A program made the translations under genes and the position numbers. From contig CM097883.1 of NCBI GenBank assembly GCA_044892505.1, positions 376,030,001 through 376,094,000 of the forward strand: a stretch of 64,000 nt of DNA. Reading direction: 5' to 3'. Origin of the DNA: Schmidtea nova. Taxonomy: Eukaryota. Below, piece by piece: positions 607 to 53,891 of this stretch. The number at the start of each line of letters is the position of its first letter. Position 1 is the stretch's first letter. The notes below the pieces were generated by a model. It did not search any database and was not told the origin of the DNA. It saw nothing but the letters and a program-made list of their open reading frames with translations.

Positions 607-2745
607 TTAATTTAATACAATTTTGACTTTTCTATTGTCTTTTTTGTAAACTGCAACGATTTTCTCGAGTTGAAACTCTTCTCCATCAATTGAGATTTTC
701 TTTTTGGCTGCCACTATCTTTTTCGATTGTTGAATAGTTTTTTTCATGCGGTTTCAATGATCGACTAGCATATGCGATTACATGATCTTTTTCTCTTTCA
801 GCCTTTTGTCCTAATACCTCTCCCAAAGCAAAACCGCTTGCGTCTGTCATTAACATAAATGTCTTTGTGAAGTCAGGACATCGTAATATTGGGTTCATCA
901 TTAATTTTTGTTTGAGTATCTCGAAAACATCCTGCTGAGCTTTGCCCCACACGAATTTCGTAGTTTTCGTTAATAGCGTCGTTAATGGTTGAGCAACATG
1001 TACAAAGTTTCTAATAAATTTTCTGTAATAGCTTGCTAACCCGAGAAATTGTCTAATATCATCAATATTTTTTGGAGTTGGATAATCTTTAATTTTCTTA
1101 ACATTTTCTGGATTTGGTTGTAGACCTCTTCGTGAAATGATGTGTCCAACATACACTACCTCTGATTTTCCCCATTCACATTTTGATGGTTTGATTTTGA
1201 GATTTGCTTCTCTGAGCCGTTTAAATACCGTTTCCACATCTCTCATATGCTCTTCGAAATTACACGAGAAGATTATAATATCATCTATATACACCAAAGC
1301 GTGTGGAATATCTCGCAGCACAAAATTCATTCCTCTTTGAAATGTCTGGTGCACCTATTAAATCAAATGGTAAAACATTAAATTCATACAAACCTTTTCC
1401 ATCTGAAAACGCTGTTTTCCCTTTATCTGTCTATTTAACTTTGAATTGATTTATTTAAATCAATAACAGTAAAATATTGAGCTTTTCCCATTTTGTCAAA
1501 CATTTCCTGGGGAACCGGAATTGGATACGTATCTTTTCTTGTCACTTGATTCAACTTTCTATAGTCAATACAAAATCTTAGTTCACCGTCTTTCTTCTTG
1601 ACCACAACAATAGAGGAAGAAATGGTGAAAAACTCTCTCTAATAATATGAAATTCTTTCATAGCCTTTATTTGTCTATCGCTTTCGTTTTGATGTGCATA
1701 CGCAATTCTGTATGGCCGTAATTTAATTGGAGTTTCGTCAATTAATGGGATTGCATGCTCAATTATATGAGTTACTCCCAGGTCATACTCATGTTTCGCA
1801 AAAATATCTTGATATTTTCTCAACAATTTTGTAAATTTTTGTATTTGCTCTTGCGTCAACTCGTTGTGGTTATTTATATATTTTAATATTTTTTGGTAAT
1901 CTTTTATTATCGATTTTTAGGATTTTTGTTAGCTTTCCTAATTTCGTTTTTGGTTTTAATGACACTTCTTTGTCGTTATTGTTAGTGATACGAATAGGAA
2001 TTAACTGATCTTGAACTTTCACTACTTCGTCGCACATTTGAGTATCATATTTGGCAATCAATTTTTCACTTGGTTGAAATATAAATTCATCGTCTGAAAC
2101 TCCCATTGTATTCACATAACAAATAACTTCACTCTGAGGTGGAACTCTTAATGTTTGATTTAGAAATACTTCTCCCGTTTCATGAATAGCCTTTCCCGTT
2201 TTTCCTACAATTAGATTTACGTTTTTCAAATCAAGAGAGACTCCTTCCAAGTGCTCCAACACATCCATCCCCACCAAACACATTACTGGGCTATCTTTCA
2301 TTATTAGCGCATCATGAACAATTTCTTTATTTCCAATATTAAATTTTACACTGATCTGTCCAATGATATTTTACTTGTTTTTCGTCATTGATCGTACAAC
2401 TTCTTCTGTACTTTCTATCTGTGCTCTTTCCCCTGAATTTAATAATTTATCTGATAATATTGTATTACTTGCGCCTGAATCTAGTAATGCTTCGACTCTA
2501 TGTTTATTCACTTGTATCTATATTCTTGGCTGCCTTCTTTTATTTCCAACTGCCATTAACGCATAGTTTCCTGGTAGGCCTAGCATGTTTCTCCTTTCAA
2601 TTTCTGCACTAGTTGGTGCGATTTGCACATTTGTCAATTCAATGTATTCAACTCGTCTCATTTCTTTTAACTTTTCTACTGGATATATTGGTGCTGTTGG
2701 CAGAAAAGTCTGGGATGCATAATCGACTGAACGTGTCTGTTCCAC
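607..2745 (-). pseudogene. pol: Gypsy pol (protease, RT, RNase H) with stops/frameshifts and an internal deletion
   Basis: QPRI*IQVNKHRVEALLDSGASNTIL (DSG codons 2473-2481); PIKLRPYR; YIDDIIIFS; FLGLASYYRKFI; TDASGFALG...KNYSTIEK, then a switch to an unrelated frame ending at TAA 607-609. Confidence 0.9.
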
Positions 2746-2834
2746 TTGCTTGTGGTATCGATTGCAATAAATTTAGAGATTTAGATTTTTCCCGTATGTC
2801 ATTTATTTTAATTTTACTGTTTTATAATAATATA

Positions 2835-3353
2835 CGTGAGCACAGTTTTCTGATACCCATGTATTTCAATTTGGCGTGGGCTGTACCAACACTGATGTTG
2901 AGCTTCGTTGACAGCATTTTCATGGTGATTCGACGCTCTTCTTGGACAATCTTCTCCAATTTTTCATCAACTGTGTCAAAAATTTCTTGTGGCAGACCTG
3001 ATTTTTCTTGATCAAAAACGGAAGTGCGACCACCTTTAAACTCTCTGACCCAATATTTAACAGTTGTCAGAGATGGGGAGTCATGTAGGTAAGTTGACTG
3101 CAAAAGACCGTAGATTTCACTGCACGTCTTCTTCTGCAACACAAAGAACTTGATAACGCTGCGATACTCAACGTCTGAAATCATTACACCGACGAAAATT
3201 CAAAATGTCACAATAAAAATTTTAATGCGTTTGATAAAATAAAACAATAACTGAAATCAATACCTATATTTATTTATTTATTTACACAAAAAAACTAAAA
3301 TTTGTCATTAAATTTTTTTAACCTTTGGTCGGGTACTTATTGAACGCACCACG
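2835..3353 (-). mobile_element. 3'-truncated mariner inserted between env and pol
   Basis: TIR start TA|CGTGGTGCGTTCAATAAGT at 3353; transposase N-terminus (YRSVIKFF...WVREFKGGRTSV...GIRKLCSR); TA on both sides (3354-55, 2833-34). Confidence 0.85.
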
Positions 3354-3355
3354 TA

Positions 3356-5309
3356 TTGGAGGTACTTTTACTTTACCTCCATTCCCACTTTCGCTGTTCG
3401 AACTCGAATCAATTTCTGTTCCGTTATTATTTAATCGTGACTTGACTTTTCCCATTTCTTTATTGATGCTTTGTAATTACAAATCTTGGCAGAAATGGTA
3501 TACATCCGATAATCAGTTTCCAAGACAATCCCGAAATAACTTATAACTGATGAGTAGTTAGTATTGGAGATATTATCACTTTAATCACCACAAACATAAC
3601 ATAAATTCCAATTAATCCTGCACATGCTTGTCCCAAAAAACATGAATTTTCCCCATATCTTTTTCATCGTATTGTACGTTGCTTTTTTATAATGATCTGG
3701 TGTCAGTAAATAATCATAATTTACTTTGCCTTCACCACTTGGTAATATAGTATCGATCATTTTAGTAATTACTCGTTCTTCCTTTGATGGGAATAGTAGA
3801 TTTCTTCGGGCTTCTTCAACATCTTCTTGAGAATATAATCCAGTTTGCGCTAATTTGTCCAGTGATGTAAAATTTATTAAATATTCAAGTTTTGTTAATT
3901 CTAGGTTTTCTGGATTTCTCACTCCTTTATGATCTGGTAATGATATAGACGAATCTGATGTTAGTCGATATAAGGGTGTGAGCAATGGATTGCATTTCAA
4001 AATTTTAGGTTTCGCGTCTTCTTCCAACAATATTCGAGTTATTGGCTCCATGAATCTCAATTTACCATTAACACTTACTGGTAATTCATTGGTACATTGC
4101 TCGTACTTTATAATTTGCACGGGAATCTCGTTGCATTTGTAGCTATACAATGCTTCTCCAAATACTCTTGCAAACACACCGTTTTCTGATATTAACATAG
4201 GTGCTACCAAGTTTGGATTTGTGACTGCCATTGCCGTTCTGTTTCGTAGTATTTCTTTATTCAACTTACAATAGTTTAATATCATTTCTCTGTAAATATT
4301 TTCCATAATACTTTGACTATTTTGTTATTAAAATAATTTGTCAATTTGATATCCGTACTATGCATTTGGACTTGAGCTTCCTCCACTCTTTTCTTGGATA
4401 CATAAATTCCTTTATAATTGGTTTCATACACCGTTTGACACATTTATTTACCACGTTTTCCCGAATAAATCTCATACCATCATCTAATAAAGTTGACATC
4501 AATACAACTGGAGTTTTCTGGTTCTCAATGGAGTAATTCTGATTGTCATGTCCGGTTTTGCCTCCACATTTAAACTTTCCGGTCTTTCTCTCAACTGATA
4601 CTCACTCATTTCATTAAAACTCATTGTTTTTAAATGTATTAGATTACATAGATTTGTCTTAACTTCATACACCAAAATTGATTCTCCTGTTTGACAGCTA
4701 GTCTGCTTCATATTACAGAATGGATGCGTTTGTAACTTGCCTGTATCGTCATCAAAGGCTCCTTGAAATTCTCTCAATTCCGTCAAATACTCTTCCATCA
4801 CAACGACTTGATCAATAATTTCCCTATTCATTTTGTACGGTTCTCCTTTACAATCCCCACTAGCTCTTATCGTCCATTTTTCGATAATTGTTTCTCGTAT
4901 CGCATGATTCAATTTAGCTTTCAATTTAACCTCGGGACTAATTTTCACTTCCTCTGTTTGAAACGCAGCCATGCAATTTTCTGGATTTACACCAACTGGC
5001 CTCGGGATTGAATACATTTTAATTAATGGTGTGTGACTCCATTTGCCACAATAAAATACAAAGCTCGTTCTTTTGACAATGCACTCTCTTACAACTGCAT
5101 GTCTAAAGCCTGATTCTTGGTATACGTGATACTTTACGTCATTTTCCACTGTTGGATTCATCGGGTGTGCATCAGAACACTGTCATGTCCACCATGGATA
5201 AAATCTTCCCAATTTTGGTTTGAGAACAATCGCATGCAATTAAAGATGCCGTTTGTGTCGTAATCGCACATAATATTATGATCATAAACATTATAAATGG
5301 AAGTTCCAT
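3356..5309 (-). pseudogene. env: Envelope glycoprotein resembling chuvirus (Jingchuvirales)-type glycoproteins, frameshifted
   Basis: Signal peptide MELPFIMFMIIILCAITTQTAS, then LIACDC..SMVDMxQC, ECIVKRTSFVFYCGKWSH, GDCKGEPY..DQVVV, CTNELPV..RFMEPITRIL..CNPLLTPLYRL, GLYSQEDVEE..LLFP, IWGKFMFFG before a hydrophobic segment; order and Cys spacing match chuvirus-like G as I recall it. Confidence 0.85.
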
Positions 5310-5794
5310 GGGTTTGCTTCTCGGTACTCCTCCGTAACTTTCTCTCTTTTCGACTATTGATTCTGTTTTTTGTTTAACTAATTTCTCCCAGCCTCCATTC
5401 TCCTTTATCAACGTGCCCACATGTTTATAGAATACTTTGCTAGTCTTTTTAATTATTTCATCTCGTTTTTCTATGTTTAAGTAATCGTATGTTCCGATTT
5501 CTAACAAAATATAACTCGTAATTGTCAATACTAGATCACTATCCATTTTCCTGTCATCATATCGGTTATAACTCTATCATCACAGAACTCCATATTGTCT
5601 TTTGCGTATCTCAAGACTACACAAAGTCTCTTTTTCAACTTTTTTGCAATTTTCCTCACATATAATTCTACTTGTATTTTCTCTGCTGATTTACCATATA
5701 ATTCATTTGCCAGCGCACGTACAACTTTTTCCGTTTCTTTTAATTCATTCTGATTTCTATCATCTTGAAGTCTCTGTATTATTTCACATCTCAC
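5310..5794 (-). pseudogene. Bcl-2-like helical domain (BH2-type motif), one frameshift, in frame with the env signal peptide
   Basis: VGTLIKENGGWEKLV resembles BH2 (Bcl-2 LHTWIQDNGGWDAFV); amphipathic helices upstream; no clear BH1 NWGR. Confidence 0.55.
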
Positions 5795-6114
5795 TTCGTA
5801 TAAACTTTTGCGTTGTTTTTACTCCGTAGTATTATCAATCGCCATTTCTGTCATATACGCCTCATTTTTAACTCCAGTTTTTGTTACGTTGTCTTCCGCT
5901 TTCTGCTCAGTTTCATGTTTTGCTTCATCTTCTCTCATTTTTTGTTCTTGTATTTCATCCTTTTTATTCATTGTTTCACCACCAAATTCTGGTAATTCAA
6001 TTTTAAAAACTTTTCTACTCCGTCTGTCTCCACTTGTTTCACTGCAAATATATCATTAATAAAATTTTGTAGGGGATCTTGATCCGTAAAGAATCCATCT
6101 TCGTTAAGCGTTCG

Positions 6115-6300
6115 TGGTACACAGCCACAATCAAATAAATATTCATCATCATCTAACTCAAAACCTTTATACGTTAGCACCATTATTCCATCATTGCCCA
6201 TAATTTCTGTTGCTCTTCGTCGAATTTTACTCACTTTCGTGTACCAATGTTCATCCGTATATTCTACTCCTTGATCATTTATTTTTAATAGTACTACGAA
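6115..6300 (-). pseudogene. Ubiquitin-like domain 2
   Basis: TKVSKIRRR...LTYKGFELDDDEYLFDCG parallels Ubl1 and ubiquitin LIFAGKQLEDGRTLSDY. Confidence 0.55.
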
Positions 6301-6565
6301 TGGCTGATTATAAATTCCTTCTTCCCTGAATTCTTGTCCAAATTTTCGAATAAGAGTTTTTATTGTTTTACTATATTTGTTTTCCAAATTCACTAACACA
6401 GTCTAGAATTTTTAATTTGTCTTCCACTTTGAGTTCTAAATTCAAAATGTTGTTTAATTTATCAATAATGTCACCTGTATTATCTTTAAGAAATGCTTCC
6501 ACTAATTCAAATCTGGTTTCCTAAAAATCATTTGTTACTGTTTTCTCATTGGCGATCATGCTCGT

Positions 6566-6772
6566 TACTTGCATTTCATTTTCACCACCAGGAATTAATC
6601 CACAATCTACCAAAATTTCGTCATCCTCCAATACTCGACCCATAAATCTAAGTTCCACTGCCCAACTTTCACACTTGTGCATTACTTTTCTTTTTAGCTC
6701 GTGCACTTTCTCGTATGCATCGATTTTAAAGTTGGATTTTGTACCATCGAGAGCATTCATTTGGATAGATAT
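6566..6772 (-). pseudogene. Ubiquitin-like domain 1
   Basis: ISIQMNALDGTKSNFKIDAYEKVHELKRKV...LRFMGRVLEDDEILVDCGL aligns along its length with ubiquitin. Confidence 0.75.
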
Positions 6773-6793
6773 AGGATCTAGCTATTTATTTTT

Positions 6794-7282: not shown

Positions 7283-8420
7283 TTAAAATTTATTAGCATT
7301 TCTGGGACAGGATTTTGCAATATGTCCATAATTTCTACACAAATGGCATTGAATTTGTCCGTTCAAATTCACATTGGCTCTCTGTGGTGATGGTGAAGTT
7401 GATGGTGATCTCGATCTTGAAAAACAATTTCTGGAAACATGTCCTTTTCTGCCGCAGCGATAACATTGCACTTCATTAAAATTTGATTTAACATCAGGAA
7501 CTGCTATCCGGAAATTTGTTCCCCTATCGTTTGTACGATAATCTTGGGTGTACTATCAGAATTATTTTTGAACCAACACTGGTTTGCATAATGGCCAATC
7601 TTCTTGCAATTTTCACACTGAATCACTTTGGATCTCTCAGCGCCTTGAGAATTACGGCTTGATCTATTTATATTTACCTCGGTTCTCAATTTGGGCGATG
7701 GGCTTTCGATCGTTGGAATCTATTTTCTGGCTTCAAATTGTTTTGGGTTGGTGTGATTGATTTTTCTCTTGGAGCTGGAATAATCGCGAACATATCAGAT
7801 TTGTTTTTGGTGCTCTTTAGATTTAATTCGATTTTCATTGCCTTTTTAACTAGTTCATCAAAATTATCATAATCTACACAGCATAAAGCAGTTTTTATCT
7901 CTTTATTTATTCCTGACAAAAATTGGTCTTGGAATAGGTCTTGCATTTGTTGGGCTAGACCTGATTGTTTCAAATCTTCTTCAAATAATTTGCTTGCGAG
8001 GGTCTACAAATGATACGCGAATTCGCTCACTGTTTCATTTGGATTTTGAACTCTGCTATAAAACTTTTGACGCATTAATCTTTTGATATCTCCTCCGATA
8101 AGTTTCGCAGCTAAAGCGTCTTTCAACTTTGCCCAATCATTACTGATTAATTTCTTATCAATCTGTTGCCAAACCTCTCTAGCTGCTACTTTAAGATATA
8201 ATAGTAGTCTCTGAATCATAATCGCTTGAGACCATCCGTACGCCGTTGCATACATGTAGTAATCACTCATAAAATCTACAAAAAAACCGTATCTCCTCCA
8301 TATTGTTCCACAGGTAATTTTTGACAACTTGCAAAATCATTATTTTCTTTAACAACTAAAACTGGCAAATCTTCACTGTTTATTATGAGTTCCTTTTTAC
8401 TTTTGCTTCGTAAATTATAC
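7283..8420 (-). pseudogene. gag: Gypsy gag with three CCHC zinc knuckles
   Basis: RYNLRS start region; YGWSQ..QRLLLYLK..W..LKDAL; RVQNPNETVSEFAYHL; CENCKKIGHYANQC, CYRCGRKGHVSRNC, CHLCRNYGHIAKSC. Confidence 0.88.
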
Positions 8421-8649
8421 CGATTCACTTTAATAAATTATTTTCTCAAATTTCACAAAATCTAAATTCAAAAATTATCACAACAATCAATAATTTACCT
8501 TGTCACGATCTCGTTCAATGATTTCTCTTTATCACAATTATTTTCACTCCCTTTTTCAATAGATTTTTTTCCAATAATTCTCCACCAACTTTTATCTCGT
8601 CATATATATCACAATTATTTTTATTCAATAATCTTTTCACCAACGTTTG

Positions 8650-27029: not shown

Positions 27030-29750
27030 TTCTCCTTTCACACTATTTGACATTATTAAACATCAAACACATATTACACCGCTAACAACCTACCCATAAG
27101 AACTGGTGTCAGAAGAGAAAAAATCAGAATACACACTCGCAGAATTTTTGTTCGTTTCAATCACTACGCCTTTTAGAATAGCTATAGATAGAGCTATAAA
27201 GGATAGTTGACTCTGTTAGCTGAACACAGTAGGCTATATTCTTAAAAACAAACTCATTTTTTTACATCAACAAATAATTAAAAGCAACAACAAAAGAAAC
27301 TAAATGGAATCAAATCAAACAAACCCAAACTATTCACAAACACCATTTGACCCGACAACCACAATACCATAAACTCAATCATTAATCCTAAGGCAAACAT
27401 TATCAATTTTTTTACCGATGAAAACGGAACCCCGCAAAAATGGTTAGAGCTCTCCAAGTTGACATTGAATCTATCAAGAATCAAGTCATCAAAAACACTA
27501 TGCGACCACATAATCGCTGCATTGACAAGCAACATACTAAACGAAATTGGCGACAGGATAGAAGAAATAGGAAAAAAATGATGACCCCTTCGAGATATTG
27601 TACTCAACCTTAATAAATAGAAATAAGGTAAACAGGAGGGAAGTATTAGAATCTTGCCTAAAAGACATTCAGCTAGGAAACGTCAAACCTAGCGAATTTT
27701 TAAGGAACCTTTAAGCAAAACTGGAATTCCTACAACCCAAAATAACAAGCTCGGGTTCAAGTGAATTCGTAAAGGACTTATTTATGAGGGCAATGCCACA
27801 AGAAATCAGACGCATTTTGGCCGCAAGCAACTGTACAAACCTTGAGACGATTGCCGAAATAGCTGATAAAATAAACGACGAAATATACCCAACAATCTGT
27901 AAAACATACAGAAATCAAAATCCGGGACAAAACAGACGAGAAATCAGTCAAGAACAAGAGAACCCCAACAATGAAACTAACAAACTACTGAATTCATTAA
28001 TAAAAAAGTCGACAAAGTCATAACAGAGAACAAAACCCTTCGAAATGATCTGTAAGAAGCACAAACGAAAGAAGCAAGAAAAAACCAACACAAACAAAAT
28101 TACCAAAATAATTACTCCCAACAAAAACTAAACTTCAACAACCATTACAACAATTCAAACAATTCAAACAACAACAACAAGCAAAACCTCAACTGGTGTT
28201 ACTACCATAACAGATTCGGGGAAAAGCTTTTAAGTGTAACACCCCTTGCACTTTCCACCACTAAAATCCGGAAAACAATTAAAGTCACCAATGACAGCAC
28301 CAACATTTGGTGACTACGAAACATTCACGGTGCAAAGCAACAATATAAACTTTCTTGTTGATTCTGGTTCAATTATTAGTTTGTTACCAAGTTATTTATT
28401 CCAATTCTTAAAAGAAGGAAACTACAACCTGTGCGCAGCAAATGGCAGCAACATCAAAACTTACGGCAAACAACAATTAACCATTAACATAAACAAAACC
28501 AACTATAATTGGGAATTCATCATTGCTGACGTGAAACAGGCAATCTTAGGAGCCGATTTCCTGACGAAATACAATTTTGCTGGTGGACTGCCGAAATAAA
28601 AGAATTTTACAAAATAATTCCGAAACAGAAAAATACTCAAACGACAAAACTAATTACAAAAGCTCAAACAACCAACCAAATTGCGATATCGGAGTAATAA
28701 CCACAAACAAAACCAATACACAACCAAAATACATACAAACCGTAAATATAAAAAACTACGATAAAACAAACACAAACAGTCCAATACCAAAAGAAATCAT
28801 GAACTTACTCGAAAATTACCCTACAATCTCTGACAAACTAACAGCAGAAAAGACAAACAAATATATAACAGAACACGCGATCATAACAGACGGAAACCCA
28901 GTCCATGCCAAAGTCAGGCAATTAGAGAACACAAAACTCACAATAACAAAAAAGATATTCAACGAACTATTAGAAAACAAAATCATCCAACATTCAGACT
29001 CAAACTAGTCATCCGCACTGATGTTTAAAGAAAAAGCAAATGGCGAATGGAGAGCATGTGGAGACTACAGAGCATTAAACAACATTACAATACCCGATGA
29101 ATATCCAATACCAATAATCAACGACGTAATCAACAGGATATACAACCCAAAATATTTCAGCAAGACTGATCTACAAAAGGCATACCACCAAATTCCAGTA
29201 CGCGAAGAAGACATCAAAAAGATGGCAATAATCACACCGATCGGCTTATTCGAATACAACCGAATGCCTTTCGGCCTAAAAAACGCAGCCGCAGCCTTTC
29301 AAAGGTTCATGGACCAAATTCTGAGAAATCACAGAAACACAGTGGCATACTTAGACGATATCTTGATCGCATCAACAAATAGGAACGAACACTTACAAGA
29401 CATCAAAGAAGTCCTCGAAACCCTCAACAACCACAAGCTAAAGATTAATATAAAAAAATGTGAATTTTTAAAACACGAGGTAAAATTTCTCGGACACATC
29501 CTAAACGAAAACGGAACAAGACCACTAAATGACAAAATAAAAGCAATTAAAGAATTTCCACTTCCCAAAACAACAAGAGAATTGAGACGTTTTCTAGGCA
29601 TGATAAATTTCTACCACAAGCACATCCCAAAATGCAGCGAAATCCTCGCACCACTAAATGAACTAAACAAAACAAAGAGAAATATCAAAATCAACTGGAA
29701 CAAAGAACTAGAAATGGCTTTCGATAAAGCAAAAGAAAATTTCAAAAAAT
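27030..29750 (+). mobile_element. 3'-truncated Ty3/Gypsy element (CsRN1/Kabuki-like gag)
   Basis: PBS TGGTGTCAGAAG at 27104-27115 (tRNA-Leu type); gag with WCYYHNRFGEKAFKC; protease LVDSGS; RT YLDDILIAS; breaks off before RNase H. Confidence 0.88.
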
Positions 29751-29824
29751 TTCGAAAAAAAATTAAAGCCTCGAAACCAAAACAACGCAACTTCGAAAAT
29801 CTAACGACACACAGTGAAAATTAG
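29021..29824 (+). pseudogene. pol: Reverse transcriptase of the Gypsy element
   Basis: WRACGDYRALN, DLQKAYHQIPV, MPFGLKNA, YLDD, FLGMINFYHK. Confidence 0.9.
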
Positions 29825-42386: not shown

Positions 42387-43923
42387 ATGGACAAGATTAA
42401 AGAAATAATTTCAAAAATTATCGAAGGAAAAGTACGAATGACGCTAAAAAGTCCTGCAGACATGGCAAAAAATTATCTCAATATTAACAATCAATACGAA
42501 AAAACCAGTAAAGTATTGTTGAGGATACCAAAATAACAAATTTACAAATAAATAAATAAAATTACCTGGGGTAAAATCGTCATGACAAAGGAGACAGTCA
42601 ATGGGAACACGAAAAAGAAAACGGAAATAAAAAAAAAATGAGAAATGAGAAATGAGAAAGATGAATCAGAGAAAAGAAATCAGACAAGTAAACAAAAACA
42701 AAGGTCAGCACTAATTAATTAGTACAAAAGGAAAAGGAATTTCAAACTCGGGAAAAATAGACATAACAACAATGTTCTTATCTCAACAGCTTGTCAGAGA
42801 TAACGAAAACGAAAAGAAAACAGGCCGTAGCGGTGAAAAGGAAAAACAGAGAATATCTTGACAGCTGTCAGAGATAACTCTATTGCAGAAAAAAGTCGGG
42901 GAATTAAGTGAAGAAAAAATGGGAAATGAGAAATAAAACTAAGTGCCACAAAGTGTCGAGATATAAAAAGAGGAAGCACAGTAAAAGCAGTCAGAATATT
43001 TTGGACAGAACAGTTGAGAGACAGAATATTGTTAGATGGAACTTTGGAGAGGAAAACATTGTTAGAGATAATATTGTCAAAAATACTTGGAACAGAGGAT
43101 CGAATTCAGAGGAAAACAGAAGACAATACAAAGATATTTATTTGGAGAAATTGAAGAAAATCGGGAATAAAATTCGAAGCAGAAAACTTAAGAGAAAATT
43201 TAAAGAAGAGTTAAAAGGAGAAACAGAAACAAAGGGATAAACATCTGGAACCTATTCAGTTAATAACCGATTAAAGTTTGGAGTAAATCCAAGTCAAGCC
43301 AAGAAAGTAACCAGTTAAATTACCTTGTTATACCGCTCAGTAGTGAATGATTGTCTGCATCCATGTTATTCATGAGTGCTAGTCTTCACCATCGTATTGT
43401 AATAAGCTGCATAATCAGTTGTTAAATTGTTGAATTTTGATCCCCTTAGTGTAAATTGAAAATATTTGTGATACTCAATAAAGTTTTTCAGTGTTAATTG
43501 TTATTTTTGGGTCAATTAAAGGCACGCTTTGGAGTCAGATATTTGATTGATAACCTTTACCATTTCACTAACAACCCGATAACCCGATAACCCAACAGTA
43601 TCTAATAGTCTAGCGTACTTAATGTACAACATGCTTGTCTTGTACAAAAGAGAACACCCAGATACAATCCAGATGCTCACATATTTACAATTATGGAAAT
43701 CATCAGAAAGTCGGTAGAGCCGTATGTAGTGAAGCAAGGAGGTTGGAAAACATTCATCAACTCATCAGATAAACTAGTTCAACCGGAAAGAATTCAACTA
43801 AAATTGAGAGAATCGTTAACAGAATTCGAAGGATCTATGAATAGTATGTTTGTGTTGATTTCGGAAAGGAGTTCAATGTTGATGAAATTCGTTGTTGAAA
43901 TAAGGTTTGATGTATATTTTTAG
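42387..43923 (+). pseudogene. Bcl-2-like ORF interrupted by a solo LTR
   Basis: Removing 42517-43601 restores the frame ..EKTSKV|SNSLAYLMYNML..; after a frameshift, SVEPYVVKQGGWKTFI resembles Bcl-xL BH2 LEPWIQENGGWDTFV. Confidence 0.5.
42517..43597 (+). repeat. Solo LTR related to the 8672-9811 LTR
   Basis: TGTTGAGG...CCCAACA with 4-bp TSD GTAT; long similarity blocks to the reverse complement of 8672-9560. Confidence 0.9.
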
Positions 43924-48402: not shown

Positions 48403-51400
48403 TCACATCCCCCCTTTTTTAAAAATCTTTAACCACTCAATATTTCTCGTGACGGTACTTCCGTTTTCCAATTTTATTTCATAACTTCGATCATGAATCT
48501 TTTTAGTAATTACACCTGGACCCATGTATCTATTATCACCTTTATTTCGAACATTTACTTTGATCAACACGCAATCTCCAATTTGAAATTCACGATTTGT
48601 CGTCTGATTGATTTTTTCTTCTTCCAAATTTTCTGAGAACCATTCACTAAAAATCTTTTTCCCAAACACCATTTCAGCTGGAGTCTTTCTAATAGTTTTT
48701 TGAAACGTTGAATTCATCATAAACTGTACTTCGGGAAGAACATCTACCCATGATTTATGTCTTTTATCTTTGAGTGTTATCTGTATTGCATCTCTAATTG
48801 TACGGAATTGTCTCTCAATCTGTCCATTTGCTGAATGATGATATGGACTTGAATAATTAATTTCAATATTGTGGAATTCTGCAAAATCTTTCATTAGCTT
48901 TGATTCAAATGATTTACCTCTGTCACAGTTTATTATCCTTGGTGCACCAAACTTCATTATCCACTCTTCTTTCAGTAATCTTACCACTGTTTTTTCATCT
49001 TGCGATTTTACCGCATGTAGAGAAATAAACTTACTATGATGATCTATAATCCCAAGAATATATCTTTCTCCTCTCATTGCAAGTTGTAATGGACCACAAA
49101 AATCTACATAGATTGTTTCAAATAATTTCGAATCACTTTTACAAATTATTTCTTCTTTTGTTTTAGTTGTATCAACCTTTCTTTTCTGACAGTTTTCACA
49201 GGCTTGTACAACATCACGAATAGATTCCTCCAAATCTTTCATATGAAAATTGTTTGATACGTACATTTTTACTTTTTAAACACCCGCGTGACAGAGCTTT
49301 TTATGATATTCTATGATGAATTTGGACTTGTTTTCCTCTGGAATCCAAATTTTATTATTATTGGTCATAATCACTCCGTTGACATATTTAAAAAATGTTT
49401 TATCTGGCATCATACTTATATTTTCTTTTATATTTTCAATTTCTCTTGAGTTCTTCTGCCATTTATTTTCAATATTTTCAGTCATCAGTGTCAACAATCT
49501 TGTTTTTAATTTACCCATTTTAGGATTTTCATGAATCATTTGACATTGAACACATGTTTCACATTCTTTTCTAGATAGAGCGTCGGCATTATTGTGGTTA
49601 TCACCTTTCCTGTATTGAATCTCCATGTCCAGACCACTAAGATGGTTAATCCAAGTTTGAAATTGTGGAGTAATAGCTTTCTTTGTCTTCATCATAAAAG
49701 TAATGGCTTTGTGATCCGTTCTCAAAATAAACTTTTTACCATATAAATAGTGCTTAAAATGACCAGTAAAATAAAATATATATAGTAATTCCTTTCTTGT
49801 TATACAATAGCCTAATTCGTGTTTATTCATAGCTCGGGATCCATATGCGATTACTCTTTCTTTATTTTCATCTTTTTGAGACAGTACAGCACCGATGCGG
49901 TCAAAACTTGCATCTGTATCCAAAATGAATGGTTTAGAAAAATCTGGAAACTTCAATACAGGTGTAGACGTTAATTTCAGTTTTAAATTTTGAAATGAAG
50001 TTTCACACTCATCAGTCCACATAAGCTTCTTTTGTTTACTTCCACATAACGCTTCTAATACTTTGGAATCTTTAGTGTAATTTTCTATAAATCTGCGATA
50101 GTAATTTGCCAGGCCTAAAAATCCTCTCAAGCTTTTTACGCATTTAGGTCTTTCAAAATTTTTAATAGTTTCAATCTTGCTTTCATCCGTACGTATTCCA
50201 TTTTCACTAATGATATGACCCAAAAATTTTACTTCTTTCCTTTTGAATTGACACTTTGCTGGACTTATTTTAAGATTTGCTAATTTAATCTTTTGAAAAA
50301 CCTTTTCAATGGTGCTATAATGTTCATTCAATGTCTTTGAAAATATAAGGATGTCATCCAAATATACAATTGTTCCATTCCAATTTAATTCTCCAAGAAC
50401 CAAATTCATAAGTCTTTGAAATGTTGCTGGTGCGGCGGCTATTCCAAATGGCATTCTGTTAAAGTAATATTGCTTGCTTTTTGTCGAGAATGCTGTTTTT
50501 AATTTTGAAGCCTCGTCGAGTTCTACTTGATAATAAGCATTGCCTAAATCAATTGTCGAGAAAAATTTTGCTCCATCAAGAATATCTAATAATTCATCTG
50601 TATTTGGGATGGGAAAAATCGGTCTTTCTGTTACATTATTTAAAGCACGATAATCCAAACATATTCTTATATCACTGCTGTTTTTCTTTTTAACACATAC
50701 TAATGGAGAATTCCAGGGAGATGTACATTCTGATATAATGCCATATTTCAACATTTCTTGAATATTTTCTTCAATTTTCTCTATTAAATGAATCGGTTGT
50801 CGCCTTGGGTTTATTACAATCGGGCTACCTTTAGTAAGTATTTCATGCTTTAATAATTCGGTTTTCCCAACATCCCATTTATGTTTCATAAAAATGCCGT
50901 CAAATGTGGAAATTAGATTATTTATTATCTTATCTTCACTCATGTGTTTATTAAATGAATTTTCCATAATTGCATTTATTTCGTCTTCACATTTATTAAT
51001 TTGTAATTGCATTCCAAATCTTTCGAGAAAATCTATACCTCCTATTAACTTTGGGTTTATATCTTTGGCTACAACGAATTCTACTTTTTTAATTTCAGAC
51101 ATTTTATCAATTTTTACATTTAATAAAGTTTTACCGCAAATTTCAATCGGGCTTTCATTCGCACATCTTAATTTTAAATTACTTGTAGTCATACTCAAGT
51201 TTCCAAGTTTTTTAAAAATATTATAATCAATCACACTTATTTTAGCTCCAGTATCTAATAGACATACTAATTTTACATTATTAATCATCACGGTAACACT
51301 GGGCCTTCCTTGCATTTTATCGTATACTATTATATCATTCCGTTTATCACGATTAAAAACATTTATTTCATTAGAAGTTAGAGGGGGGTCTTTAAAAAGT

Positions 51401-51504
51401 TCATCCATACAAAATTTATCAATGTATATATTAGTATAATTTCTATAATCAAAAACACAAGCACAACAGTTATCATTCAAACTATCACAATCATTCAAAG
51501 TCAT
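48403..51504 (-). CDS. pol: Pol (PR-RT-RNase H-integrase) with a single in-frame stop at 49276-49278
   Basis: LLDTGA, YLDD, TDAS..RKELL, HAGV*KV..CENC, integrase D(YVDF)..D(CDRG)..E(IERQF); the two ORFs share a frame. Confidence 0.92.
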
Positions 51505-51533
51505 ACAATCCTTACTTACATCATTAATTACCT

Positions 51534-52562
51534 TTAATTTATTGCTCCGATCACCTCCTCGTGTGGTGGAGCATTCCCGTTTGGGTACTCAAAACCAGCT
51601 CCTGGATCCTCGTCACCGAATGCGGCCACTGATTTATGGAATTTTCGTCGTCTGTCTGGAAATAACTCATGGCACTGATGTTTGAAATGTCCTGATCTTT
51701 TACAATGGGTACATTGAATATTGGGGCATTCAGATCTTCTATGACCTTCTTCGTGGCACGCCCAACATCGTAAAATTTGATTTGTTCGGGCATGATCTCG
51801 TGAATGAAATTCCCTGGTATTATAAGGCTTACTTCTATTCACAGGTTTCCATCCATTTGAAATAGTATATCGATGTTCTCTTGTAAAATCTCCTTTAAAT
51901 CTTGGATTAGGCTGAGGTTCTCTTGAATATTCATTTTTTAAACTGGGATTAGCTTCTCGTTCTCTAATTGATCTGTTTTCATAGCCATATCTTGATAAAC
52001 TCTTCTTAACAGCATCAGCATATCGTTGGGTTTTATTCATTGAAGCTACATCAGCATGAAATACATTAATTTCTTTTGAAACCTGATCGTGTTTCTTTAA
52101 TCTTTCTTTCATTTCATCAAATGATTTTAAATCTTGCATTTTCAGATCTTTTTTAACTTCTTTATCTTCAAGCGAATTGAATAGTAAAAATTTCTTTAGT
52201 TCTTCTTCATCAAGTTTATGCTTCAAAATATTTTTTGCAAGTTTCTCAATTTTTGAGCAGAATTCTTCGGCTGCATCATTTCCTTGACGATAGTTTAGTG
52301 CTTCGTTGAGATCATCGATAAGACTTTTGTTCTTAGCAAAAGCGTTTCTTAATCTTTCTGTATAATGCAGAGTTTCATTTGTCAACTCATATTTCTTCGT
52401 TGCATTGATTGATAGAAAAGCTTTGACGAATTTGCTTCTGTATTCATCGACAATATTTGTCATCTCGAAGAATCGTTCCGTTTCTAAGATGAAATCTTCC
52501 ACGTCTGAATCCATGTCATATGTTTCTGGTGGTTTGATAAAATTTGCAATCGTGGTCGCCAT
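51534..52562 (-). CDS. gag: Gag with two CCHC knuckles
   Basis: CWACHEEGHRRSEC, CTHCKRSGHFKHQC; likely start ATG at 52562. Confidence 0.9.
   Translation of the reverse strand: MATTIANFIKPPETYDMDSDVEDFILETERFFEMTNIVDEYRSKFVKAFLSINATKKYELTNETLHYTERLRNAFAKNKSLIDDLNEALNYRQGNDAAEEFCSKIEKLAKNILKHKLDEEELKKFLLFNSLEDKEVKKDLKMQDLKSFDEMKERLKKHDQVSKEINVFHADVASMNKTQRYADAVKKSLSRYGYENRSIREREANPSLKNEYSREPQPNPRFKGDFTREHRYTISNGWKPVNRSKPYNTREFHSRDHARTNQILRCWACHEEGHRRSECPNIQCTHCKRSGHFKHQCHELFPDRRRKFHKSVAAFGDEDPGAGFEYPNGNAPPHEEVIGAIN
51543..51585 (-). promoter_or_regulatory. Putative -1 ribosomal frameshift signal
   Basis: C CCA AAC in the gag frame, 5-nt spacer, stem TGCTCC...GGAGCA; the -1 frame is open from there into pol. 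Confidence 0.7.
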
Positions 52563-52816
52563 ATTAGCCACAGCACTACGGGTATTAATTGAATCCATAA
52601 GACAAATTATAATATAACGTTTATTAATTTAAAATCCAATATTATTAAAACAAATTATAACGTTAATTTGTTTGAGGAGTTTCTAAAAATATAATTAATG
52701 TATAAGTAAGGATTTCAACATACAATCAAACATGCACAGCATCATACCATTATATTTTAATACAAATTACAAAAACGCCTCACAATTATTATTATTATTA
52801 TTATTATTAATATTAT

Positions 52817-53018
52817 TATTATTATTATCAATAATTCTCATAATGACTATAGATCAAAATTTTTTTTTTATAAACAATAACACAATATTTCGGCACAGCC
52901 TTTATCAAGTGTTATCAAATACACACTTGATAAAGGCTGTGCCGAAATATTGTGTTATTGTTTATAAAAAAAAAATTTTGATCTATAGTCATTATGAGAA
53001 TTATTGATAATAATAATA
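52817..53018. repeat. Perfect inverted repeat (96-bp arms, 10-nt loop) of a Penelope-like terminus
   Basis: 52817-52912 is the reverse complement of 52923-53018. Confidence 0.9.
52923..52955 (+). ncRNA. Minimal type I hammerhead ribozyme motif, U3-A8 variant (mirror copy 52880-52912, minus)
   Basis: ACAC-UUGAUAA-A-GGC-UGU-GCC-GAAA-UAU-U-GUGU. Confidence 0.55.
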
Positions 53019-53222
53019 AAAAAAGATCAAAGGTGAAANNNNNNNNNNNNNNNNNNNNNNNNNNNNNNNNNNNNNNNNNNNNNNNNNNNNNNNNNNNNNN
53101 NNNNNNNNNNNNNNNNNNNNNNNNNNNNNNNNNNNNNNNNNNNNNNNNNNNNNNNNNNNNNNNNNNNNNNNNNNNNNNNNNNNNNNNNNNNNNNNNNNNN
53201 NNNNNNNNNNNNNNNNNNNNNA

Positions 53223-53891
53223 TTCATATAAATAAGAGAACACCATTTTTTTAATATATTAATGCATTATATTTCAACAGCTTATCTGTCATCATCAGGC
53301 TTTCACAATCTCAATAAAATAAAAATTGATCTTAATTATACGCTTAATAGTGATTACATAATTACATGTGTATAATCCAATAAAACTTTTATTTGCCCTA
53401 ATAAAATTAATTAAAAACTCTCAAAATGCATGTAGATATTGATAAGACTTTTGTTCTTAGCAAAAGCGTTTCTTAATCTTTCTGTATAATGCAGAGTTTC
53501 ATTTGTCAACTCATATTTCTTCGTTGCATTGATTGATAGAAAAGCTTTGACGAATTTGCTTCTGTATTCATCGACAATATTTGTCATCTCGAAGAATCGT
53601 TCCGTTTCTAAGATGAAATCTTCCACGTCTGAATCCATGTCATATGTTTCTGGTGGTTTGATAAAATTTGCAATCGTGGTCGCCATATTAGCCACAGCAC
53701 TACGGGTATTAATTGAATCCATAAGACAAATTATAATATAACGTTTATTAATTTAAAATCCAATATTATTAAAACAAATTATAACGTTAATTTGTTTGAG
53801 GAGTTTCTAAAAATATAATTAATGTATAAGTAAGGATTTCAACATACAATCAAACATGCACAGCATCATACCATTATATTTTAATACAAAT
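53223..53891. repeat. Gap-flanked duplicate of a Penelope pLTR (54074-54295) joined to Gypsy 5' gag/LTR (52320-52766)
   Basis: Near-identical copies bounded by N gaps. Confidence 0.8.

Follow-up and report, generated by a model that had tools for sequence, protein, structure and literature searches.

A dead Burro-type retroelement copy in Schmidtea nova with a predicted Bcl-2-fold domain ahead of its envelope signal peptide

The window analysed here, a stretch of 64,000 nucleotides of Schmidtea nova DNA (contig CM097883.1, positions 376,030,001 to 376,094,000), contains a dead copy of a 16.5-kb Ty3/gypsy element with a single Gag-Ubl-Bcl2-Env-Pol open reading frame. For the domain ahead of Env, the prediction is a full Bcl-2 fold. 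In active copies of this Burro-type element, the Env signal peptide would probably serve as the ER anchor of this domain, with a likely dampening of host cell death. The order Ubl-BCL2-env-protease is already published for Burro elements (PMC6431247, Burro section) and the layout itself is not new; what is added here is the support for the fold, the breadth of the families and an argument from topology.

The element in the window and its relatives

On the minus strand, the window copy reads in the order Gag with CCHC knuckles, ubiquitin-like domain (Ubl), Bcl-2-like region, Monjiviricetes-type fusion glycoprotein, protease, reverse transcriptase (RT) and part of RNase H. The features are listed below.

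7286..8437, minus: Gag region, broken, with Retrotrans_gag and CCHC knuckles (Pfam PF03732, E 3e-5; PF00098, E 6e-10)
6524..6781, minus: ubiquitin/SUMO-like domain (Pfam PF00240, E 8.8e-5, below cut-off)
5971..6402, minus: possible second ubiquitin-like region, by eye only, with no relevant Pfam match
5696..5746, minus: predicted Bcl-2 fold helix 1, the BH4 position (helix 2-18 of the sister-copy model; aligns from residue 1 with Bcl-2 family chains)
5624..5659, minus: helix 2, taken as the BH3 position (Gly-Asp is missing from the window family, which keeps the hydrophobic pattern)
5534..5573, minus: frameshift near 5550, which divides the domain immediately ahead of BH1
5511..5546, minus: BH1 position, where core helix 5 begins and NWGR is replaced (profile alignment to Bcl-xL)
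5376..5408, minus: BH2 motif (GGW), IKENGGWEKLV
5244..5309, minus: putative internal signal peptide of the glycoprotein, MELPFIMFMIIILCAITTQTAS (PF24664 profile start in sister elements; -3/-1 residues T/S)
3450..5243, minus: Env, a chuvirus-type (class III, gB-like) fusion glycoprotein, broken (PF24664, E 1e-14 and 5e-44)
3571..3627, minus: Env C-terminal transmembrane segment, a presumed stop-transfer (hydropathy in the unbroken copy)
2835..3353, minus: inserted mariner-type transposase fragment (blastn gap against the unbroken copy; PF17906, E 3e-8)
713..2834, minus: protease, RT (YIDD at 1280-1291) and the first part of RNase H, up to a truncation near 713
43583..43770, plus: second Bcl-2-like fragment, spanning helix 5 through BH2 and belonging to another element family (profile E 1e-5)

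Aligned by blastn with one unbroken copy, the window copy forms two blocks, 90.5% and 92.4% identical, with a 519-bp mariner-type insertion between them. Relative to the unbroken copy it carries 23 frame-breaking indels, and it is truncated near 713. The frameshift near 5550 falls inside the Bcl-2-like domain and cuts off helices 1-4 (frame 5534-5818) from BH1-BH2. Because of the indels, the insertion and the truncation, the window copy is incapable of making the polyprotein product, and its expression as a polyprotein was rejected.

A search of the host genome gave 1829 candidates, of which the best 150 were scored, many of them lying inside open frames of 3232 residues. One unbroken copy spans 16.5 kb and has an ORF of 3232 residues; its 993-bp LTRs are 99.7% alike, and the window family was therefore active recently. 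By Pfam, this frame encodes Gag (with three CCHC knuckles), Ubl, Env, protease, RT, RNase H and integrase, with an RNase_T-type ORF following. The latter is a 485-codon frame (L095:236-1693) whose match to the RNase_T (DEDDh-type) exonucleases has an E-value of 1.2e-5. A hydrophobic segment after integrase (residues 3186-3204 of the L094 ORF) forms the end of the polyprotein. In a related polyprotein, P0007, several aspartyl-protease-like repeats come after Env.

Within the single ORF of unbroken copies, env sits in frame after gag and ahead of pol, and the Ubl is followed by the BCL2-like motif ahead of env. By this defining order we class the window family as Burro-type, not as Burro1 proper. 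The published description (PMC6431247) covers the giant gypsy-like elements Burro1-4/GYPSM1 of Schmidtea mediterranea and a Burro-like element of Dugesia tigrina; in it, Burro is a single ORF that encodes Gag, Ubi2/SUMO-like and BCL2-like regions, in-frame env, protease and RT, and interference with apoptosis is suggested. Burro elements and the window family are alike in their single ORF, Gag with three CCHC knuckles, Ubl, BCL2-like motif, in-frame env, protease, RT, RNase H and integrase (PMC6431247). They differ in size (the window family is about half as large, with 16.5 kb and 3232 residues measured in one unbroken copy, against >30 kb and 4873 residues in Burro1), in the RNase_T-type accessory ORF that follows the polyprotein in the window family, and in cargo, the window-family ORF giving no Pfam match for MATH, BIR, ankyrin or dUTPase whereas the published Burro calls were made partly by HHpred. 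The Burro section of PMC6431247 contains no fold test and no signal peptide or anchoring argument. The original prediction had noted that Burro elements were reported to carry a captured anti-apoptotic protein; a BCL2-like motif is indeed in print (PMC6431247), but the functionally tested cargo of Burro1 is an anti-apoptotic IAP, according to passages of PMC13465017 that cite another paper. Flatworm Gag-Env-Pol errantiviruses are listed in PMC13524379, the main text of which does not contain 'Bcl'; the Gag-Env-Pol order is common to these and the window element, and the window env is ~73% identical, counted by eye over 156 residues, to that of Smed_errantivirus_1.

Six further families share the Bcl2-signal-Env junction, so that at least seven families with this layout are present in the genome. 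Frames near 3401, 3393, 3427-3442, 3059-3082 and 2992 residues were measured in five of the six. When 1.84 billion proteins were searched with a profile, 15 matches came back, namely 12 element-like proteins or fragments and three cellular-type Bcl-2 proteins. The domain is present also in metagenome proteins beyond the families of this genome. The plus-strand fragment at 43583-43770 belongs to a high-copy family (at least 40 matches), matches open-frame copies with the Bcl2-signal-Env layout at 84-85% DNA identity, and adjoins LTR-like sequence at 42515-43585. The window holds two other Ty3/gypsy elements, one at 27715-29821 (plus) and one at 48406-53752 (minus), the latter having gag and pol frames that are nearly intact, identical repeats of 223 bp and a duplication of 1124 bp.

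The Bcl-2-like domain: motifs and predicted fold

IKENGGWEKLV and MELPFIMFMIIILCAITTQTAS lie in one stop-free frame (5175-5573, minus strand), with 26 residues between the Trp of GGW and the Met of the hydrophobic stretch. The original prediction, which had placed the two about 25 residues apart in one ORF, was correct to this extent, but the domain as a whole is split by the frameshift near 5550. The six frames of the window contain two GGW motifs, each in a Bcl-2-like context. Profiles built from element-type rows only match Bcl-xL from helix 4 to BH2 at E-values of 1e-7 and 5e-10, which takes the resemblance to Bcl-2 beyond chance and, together with the Gag, Ubl, Env and Pol context found by Pfam, bears out the proposal of a Bcl-2-like domain in a retrotransposon. 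The Pfam Bcl-2 family (PF00452) is matched at E<=1 by 24 of the 27 alignment rows (best 2e-8). The window family scores 13.6-18.6 bits for PF00452, below the curated cut-off of 31.4, and copies of two sister families, inside 3000-residue frames, pass it with 31.4-34.9 bits. The window's own broken pieces gave no Pfam Bcl-2 match, and the assignment hence depends on natural sister copies, 83-89% identical here. Single-sequence searching of the PDB with the domain was likewise empty, the ESM Atlas search with the domain gave no usable match, and word-indexed protein searches at 'longer' lengths gave none for the domain or for the N-terminal half of Env, and two with the profile.

The GGW of BH2 is kept in 29 of the 30 window-family loci, the remaining locus being unparsed, in agreement with the conservation expected by the original prediction. 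A Trp five residues ahead of it (W-x5-GGW) is found in 27/29 parsed loci and is Leu in the window copy. The BH1 signature of canonical Bcl-2 proteins is NWGR, as seen in the Bcl-xL alignment. This canonical signature is lost from the window family, being replaced in all 29 parsed loci (DRDL in 27, DSDL in the window); NWGR had been called unrecognisable and is indeed absent, but the BH1 helix itself can be located at 5511-5546. The loss is graded, as a sister family reads GIN-R/W-DR and keeps N-x-D-R, while the Gly and Arg of BH1 are kept together in no element family examined, except in the unplaced fragment P0010. The BH3 position, which we take to be helix 2, was assigned by eye from the motif as commonly given.

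In L071, L040, L101, P0009 and P0016, an AT-hook-like RGRP lies just upstream of helix 1, and some families of this set have an extra amphipathic helix ahead of helix 1 (LREIASEM, LREIANQQ), which we presume, by comparison with the general motif, to resemble BH3 without its Asp. This extra helix could occupy the groove in cis. Neither the helix nor RGRP is evident upstream of helix 1 in the window family.

The fold was predicted for the 128-residue domain of a natural copy (L004), using 27 rows, of which four are fragments without visible element context and from which the three cellular-type Bcl-2 matches were excluded. The model has a pLDDT of 83.7 and a pTM of 0.83, and its helices pack as a bundle about a central hydrophobic helix 5, as is characteristic of the Bcl-2 fold superfamily. 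In a structure comparison with 48,161 chains, ranks 1-35 were all of the Bcl-2 fold, the first other fold appearing at Z 5.3; the test proposed originally, run here on a sister copy, thus came out in favour of the prediction. The best match was Bfl-1 (Z 13.2, rmsd 2.8, 126 of 128 residues aligned), and the pro-survival members (Z 11.4-13.2) were closer than A52 and B14 (Z 8.3-8.8). Foldseek with the same model gave nothing at E<=0.001, with best values of 2.4e-3 (Mcl-1) in the PDB and 0.023 in the viral library. The PDB rows shown were all Bcl-2 family members, with TM up to 0.73, and the first 18 named rows of the viral library were Bcl-2 homologues, two rows being unnamed. An earlier fold, of 207 residues with linker and signal included and 14 rows, had a pLDDT of 53.5 and no clear match, and was replaced by the trimmed, deeper alignment. 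Prediction of a complex between the domain and a host Bak-like BH3 segment, without an alignment, gave no usable answer, with a score of 0.01.

With the cellular and DNA-virus Bcl-2 proteins (Bfl-1/A1, Mcl-1, Bcl-xL, KsBcl-2, A179L, BHRF1) the window-family domain shares a predicted eight-helix-type bundle over its whole length, the GGW of BH2 and a hydrophobic segment C-terminal to BH2. It differs from them in its low identity (6-16%), its replaced NWGR, its embedding in a polyprotein and the nature of the segment, which appears to be a cleavable glycoprotein signal peptide.

The envelope signal peptide and membrane topology

The identification of the hydrophobic stretch as the signal peptide of Env, as originally proposed, is supported by the sequence comparisons. 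The segment lies 28 residues past BH2 and, in sister elements, the PF24664 profile begins (position 5-6) inside it, indicating that the segment arrived with the glycoprotein. Since the segment aligns to where the glycoprotein family begins, its origin as a captured Bcl-2 tail was rejected. We set the cut by homology, at two residues ahead of a conserved AYDC-type motif. Judged by hydropathy and a residue rule, the stretch has the basic n-region, hydrophobic core of about 15 residues and small -3/-1 residues of a cleavable signal peptide; position -1 is small in 16/17 rows and position -3 is small or Val in 17/17, the rows including near-copies.

The distance from BH2 to the cut is 47-76 residues across rows. 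It is 48 residues from the Trp of GGW in the window family, and the BH2-to-tail linker of Bcl-xL is about 45 residues. The last eight residues before the cut carry a net charge of 0 to +1 and, unlike a conserved mitochondrial tail, lack a basic C-terminal end. Between Gag and integrase of the unbroken frame, strongly hydrophobic windows occur only at residues 1052-1070 and 1615-1633, with a third at the extreme C-terminus. The first two flank the ectodomain, which is the pattern required for a lumenal Env and a cytosolic Pol. A Met precedes the hydrophobic segment in 29/29 parsed loci of the window family. In four lineages (L040, L065, P0003 and P0007), Met is missing from the stretch that separates BH2 from the hydrophobic core, which favours translation of their Env from upstream.

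Co-translational threading of such a polyprotein would leave Gag-Ubl-Bcl2 in the cytosol, the Env ectodomain in the lumen and protease-RT-integrase again in the cytosol. Signal peptidase would then cut after the Env signal peptide, and the upstream chain would end in the Bcl-2 domain followed by the retained signal peptide, its ER membrane anchor, from where the Bcl-2-like domain would dampen host cell death. The topology makes plausible the original proposal that the signal peptide could double as a tail anchor. On the analogy of the rubella capsid, we lean towards such retention of the Env signal peptide on the upstream chain. That capsid retains the E2 signal peptide as a membrane anchor and is anti-apoptotic, although the signal peptide is dispensable for blocking apoptosis (PMC3040668). 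The likeness is one of mechanism only, as the capsid has an arginine-rich motif and not a Bcl-2 fold, and its case, unlike ours, is experimentally shown (PMC3040668). In the literature on a retroelement Bcl-2 domain anchored by an Env signal peptide, PMC6431247 and PMC13524379 were the only relevant matches, and the idea was not found in print within the available text of these.

Selection, rival explanations and origin

The domain dN/dS could be estimated in 9 of 12 pairs and was below 1 in all nine (0.15, 0.16, 0.22, 0.26, 0.33, 0.40, 0.60, 0.77 and 0.79), with several pairs near saturation; that of the adjacent Env was 0-0.24. The Bcl-2-like domain is under purifying selection between families. 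Its identity between families is 23-51%, compared with 67-84% in the adjacent Env.

These data bear directly on the reading of the domain as functionless, either a passenger in decay or a helical likeness due to chance. The lack of a Pfam match for the window piece, the empty single-sequence PDB search and the pairs with dN/dS near 0.8 would suit such a reading, but the profile and fold evidence for Bcl-2, the retention of the domain by seven or more families of this genome and by other metagenome proteins, and a dN/dS that is mostly 0.15-0.40 make it very improbable, and we consider it largely refuted already. A functional Bcl-2 fold might instead be a repurposed scaffold, blocking innate-immune or stress signalling as A52, B14 and K7 do, or aiding particle assembly at the ER beside Env. 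Poxvirus Bcl-2-fold proteins of this kind act on NF-kB instead of apoptosis (PMC7022251), and the loss of the BH1 Gly and Arg, the absence of the BH3 Gly-Asp in the window family and the fast evolution of the domain relative to Env all speak for a change of role. We nevertheless hold a scaffold to be unlikely, given the nearly invariant GGW of BH2, the greater structural closeness to pro-survival members than to A52 and B14, and the IAP carried by the related Burro1 (as cited in PMC13465017).

A stronger competitor concerns the anchor, namely that the signal peptide serves Env alone, the Bcl-2 domain being soluble or Gag-bound after release by the element protease or signal peptide peptidase, or Env being made from a spliced message. 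The homology of the segment to the glycoprotein family start, the variable linker between BH2 and the cut, the Met ahead of the segment in every parsed window-family locus and the protease encoded by the element are as expected under this arrangement, which keeps an appreciable probability, clearly short of even. It accords less well with the four lineages lacking an upstream Met, with Pol in frame after Env, which requires two membrane passes, and with a window-family linker of 48 residues, close to that of Bcl-xL.

Returning to the domain as a death blocker, a putative pro-survival activity, probably through a remodelled groove given the loss of the BH1 Gly and Arg, is a tentative assignment that we place slightly under an even chance. 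It is favoured by the conserved BH2, by the closest structures being pro-survival and by the functional IAP of Burro1 (as cited in PMC13465017). More speculatively, and doubtful as a whole, Gag-Env-Pol retroelements may have captured Bcl-2 once and diversified it into a groove-remodelled family, with the Env signal peptide as the anchor that would yield one ER death blocker per Env made, by analogy with the rubella capsid. The pro-survival Bcl-2 mimics listed in PMC7022251 are from large DNA viruses; if our reading is true, this would be a Bcl-2 mimic in a reverse-transcribing element. That at least seven high-copy families have kept a Bcl-2 domain under selection points to management of host cell death by these elements, and this has a bearing on the persistence of retroelements in stem-cell-rich animals. 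The published Burro mention is a motif call, and the fold support and a defined domain of about 125 residues enable direct binding and localisation assays.

In a tree of 71 columns, a branch supported at 92/92 sets the 15 element-type rows apart, which fits a single capture without proving it. L036 and L038 are weakly placed (84/89) beside the element clade, and their position may indicate the donor gene. These two, with L050, L042, L056, L059 and L081, are compact host-type Bcl-2-like genes, partly duplicated and partly broken. Other host Bcl-2-family genes lie in L035/L097, L037, L031-L034, L039 and L052, and include a Bak/Bax-like gene with a BH3-like exon in L097. Between L065 and L068, dS is 0.56 in the Bcl-2 domain and 0.10 in the adjacent Env, which suggests module exchange between subfamilies.
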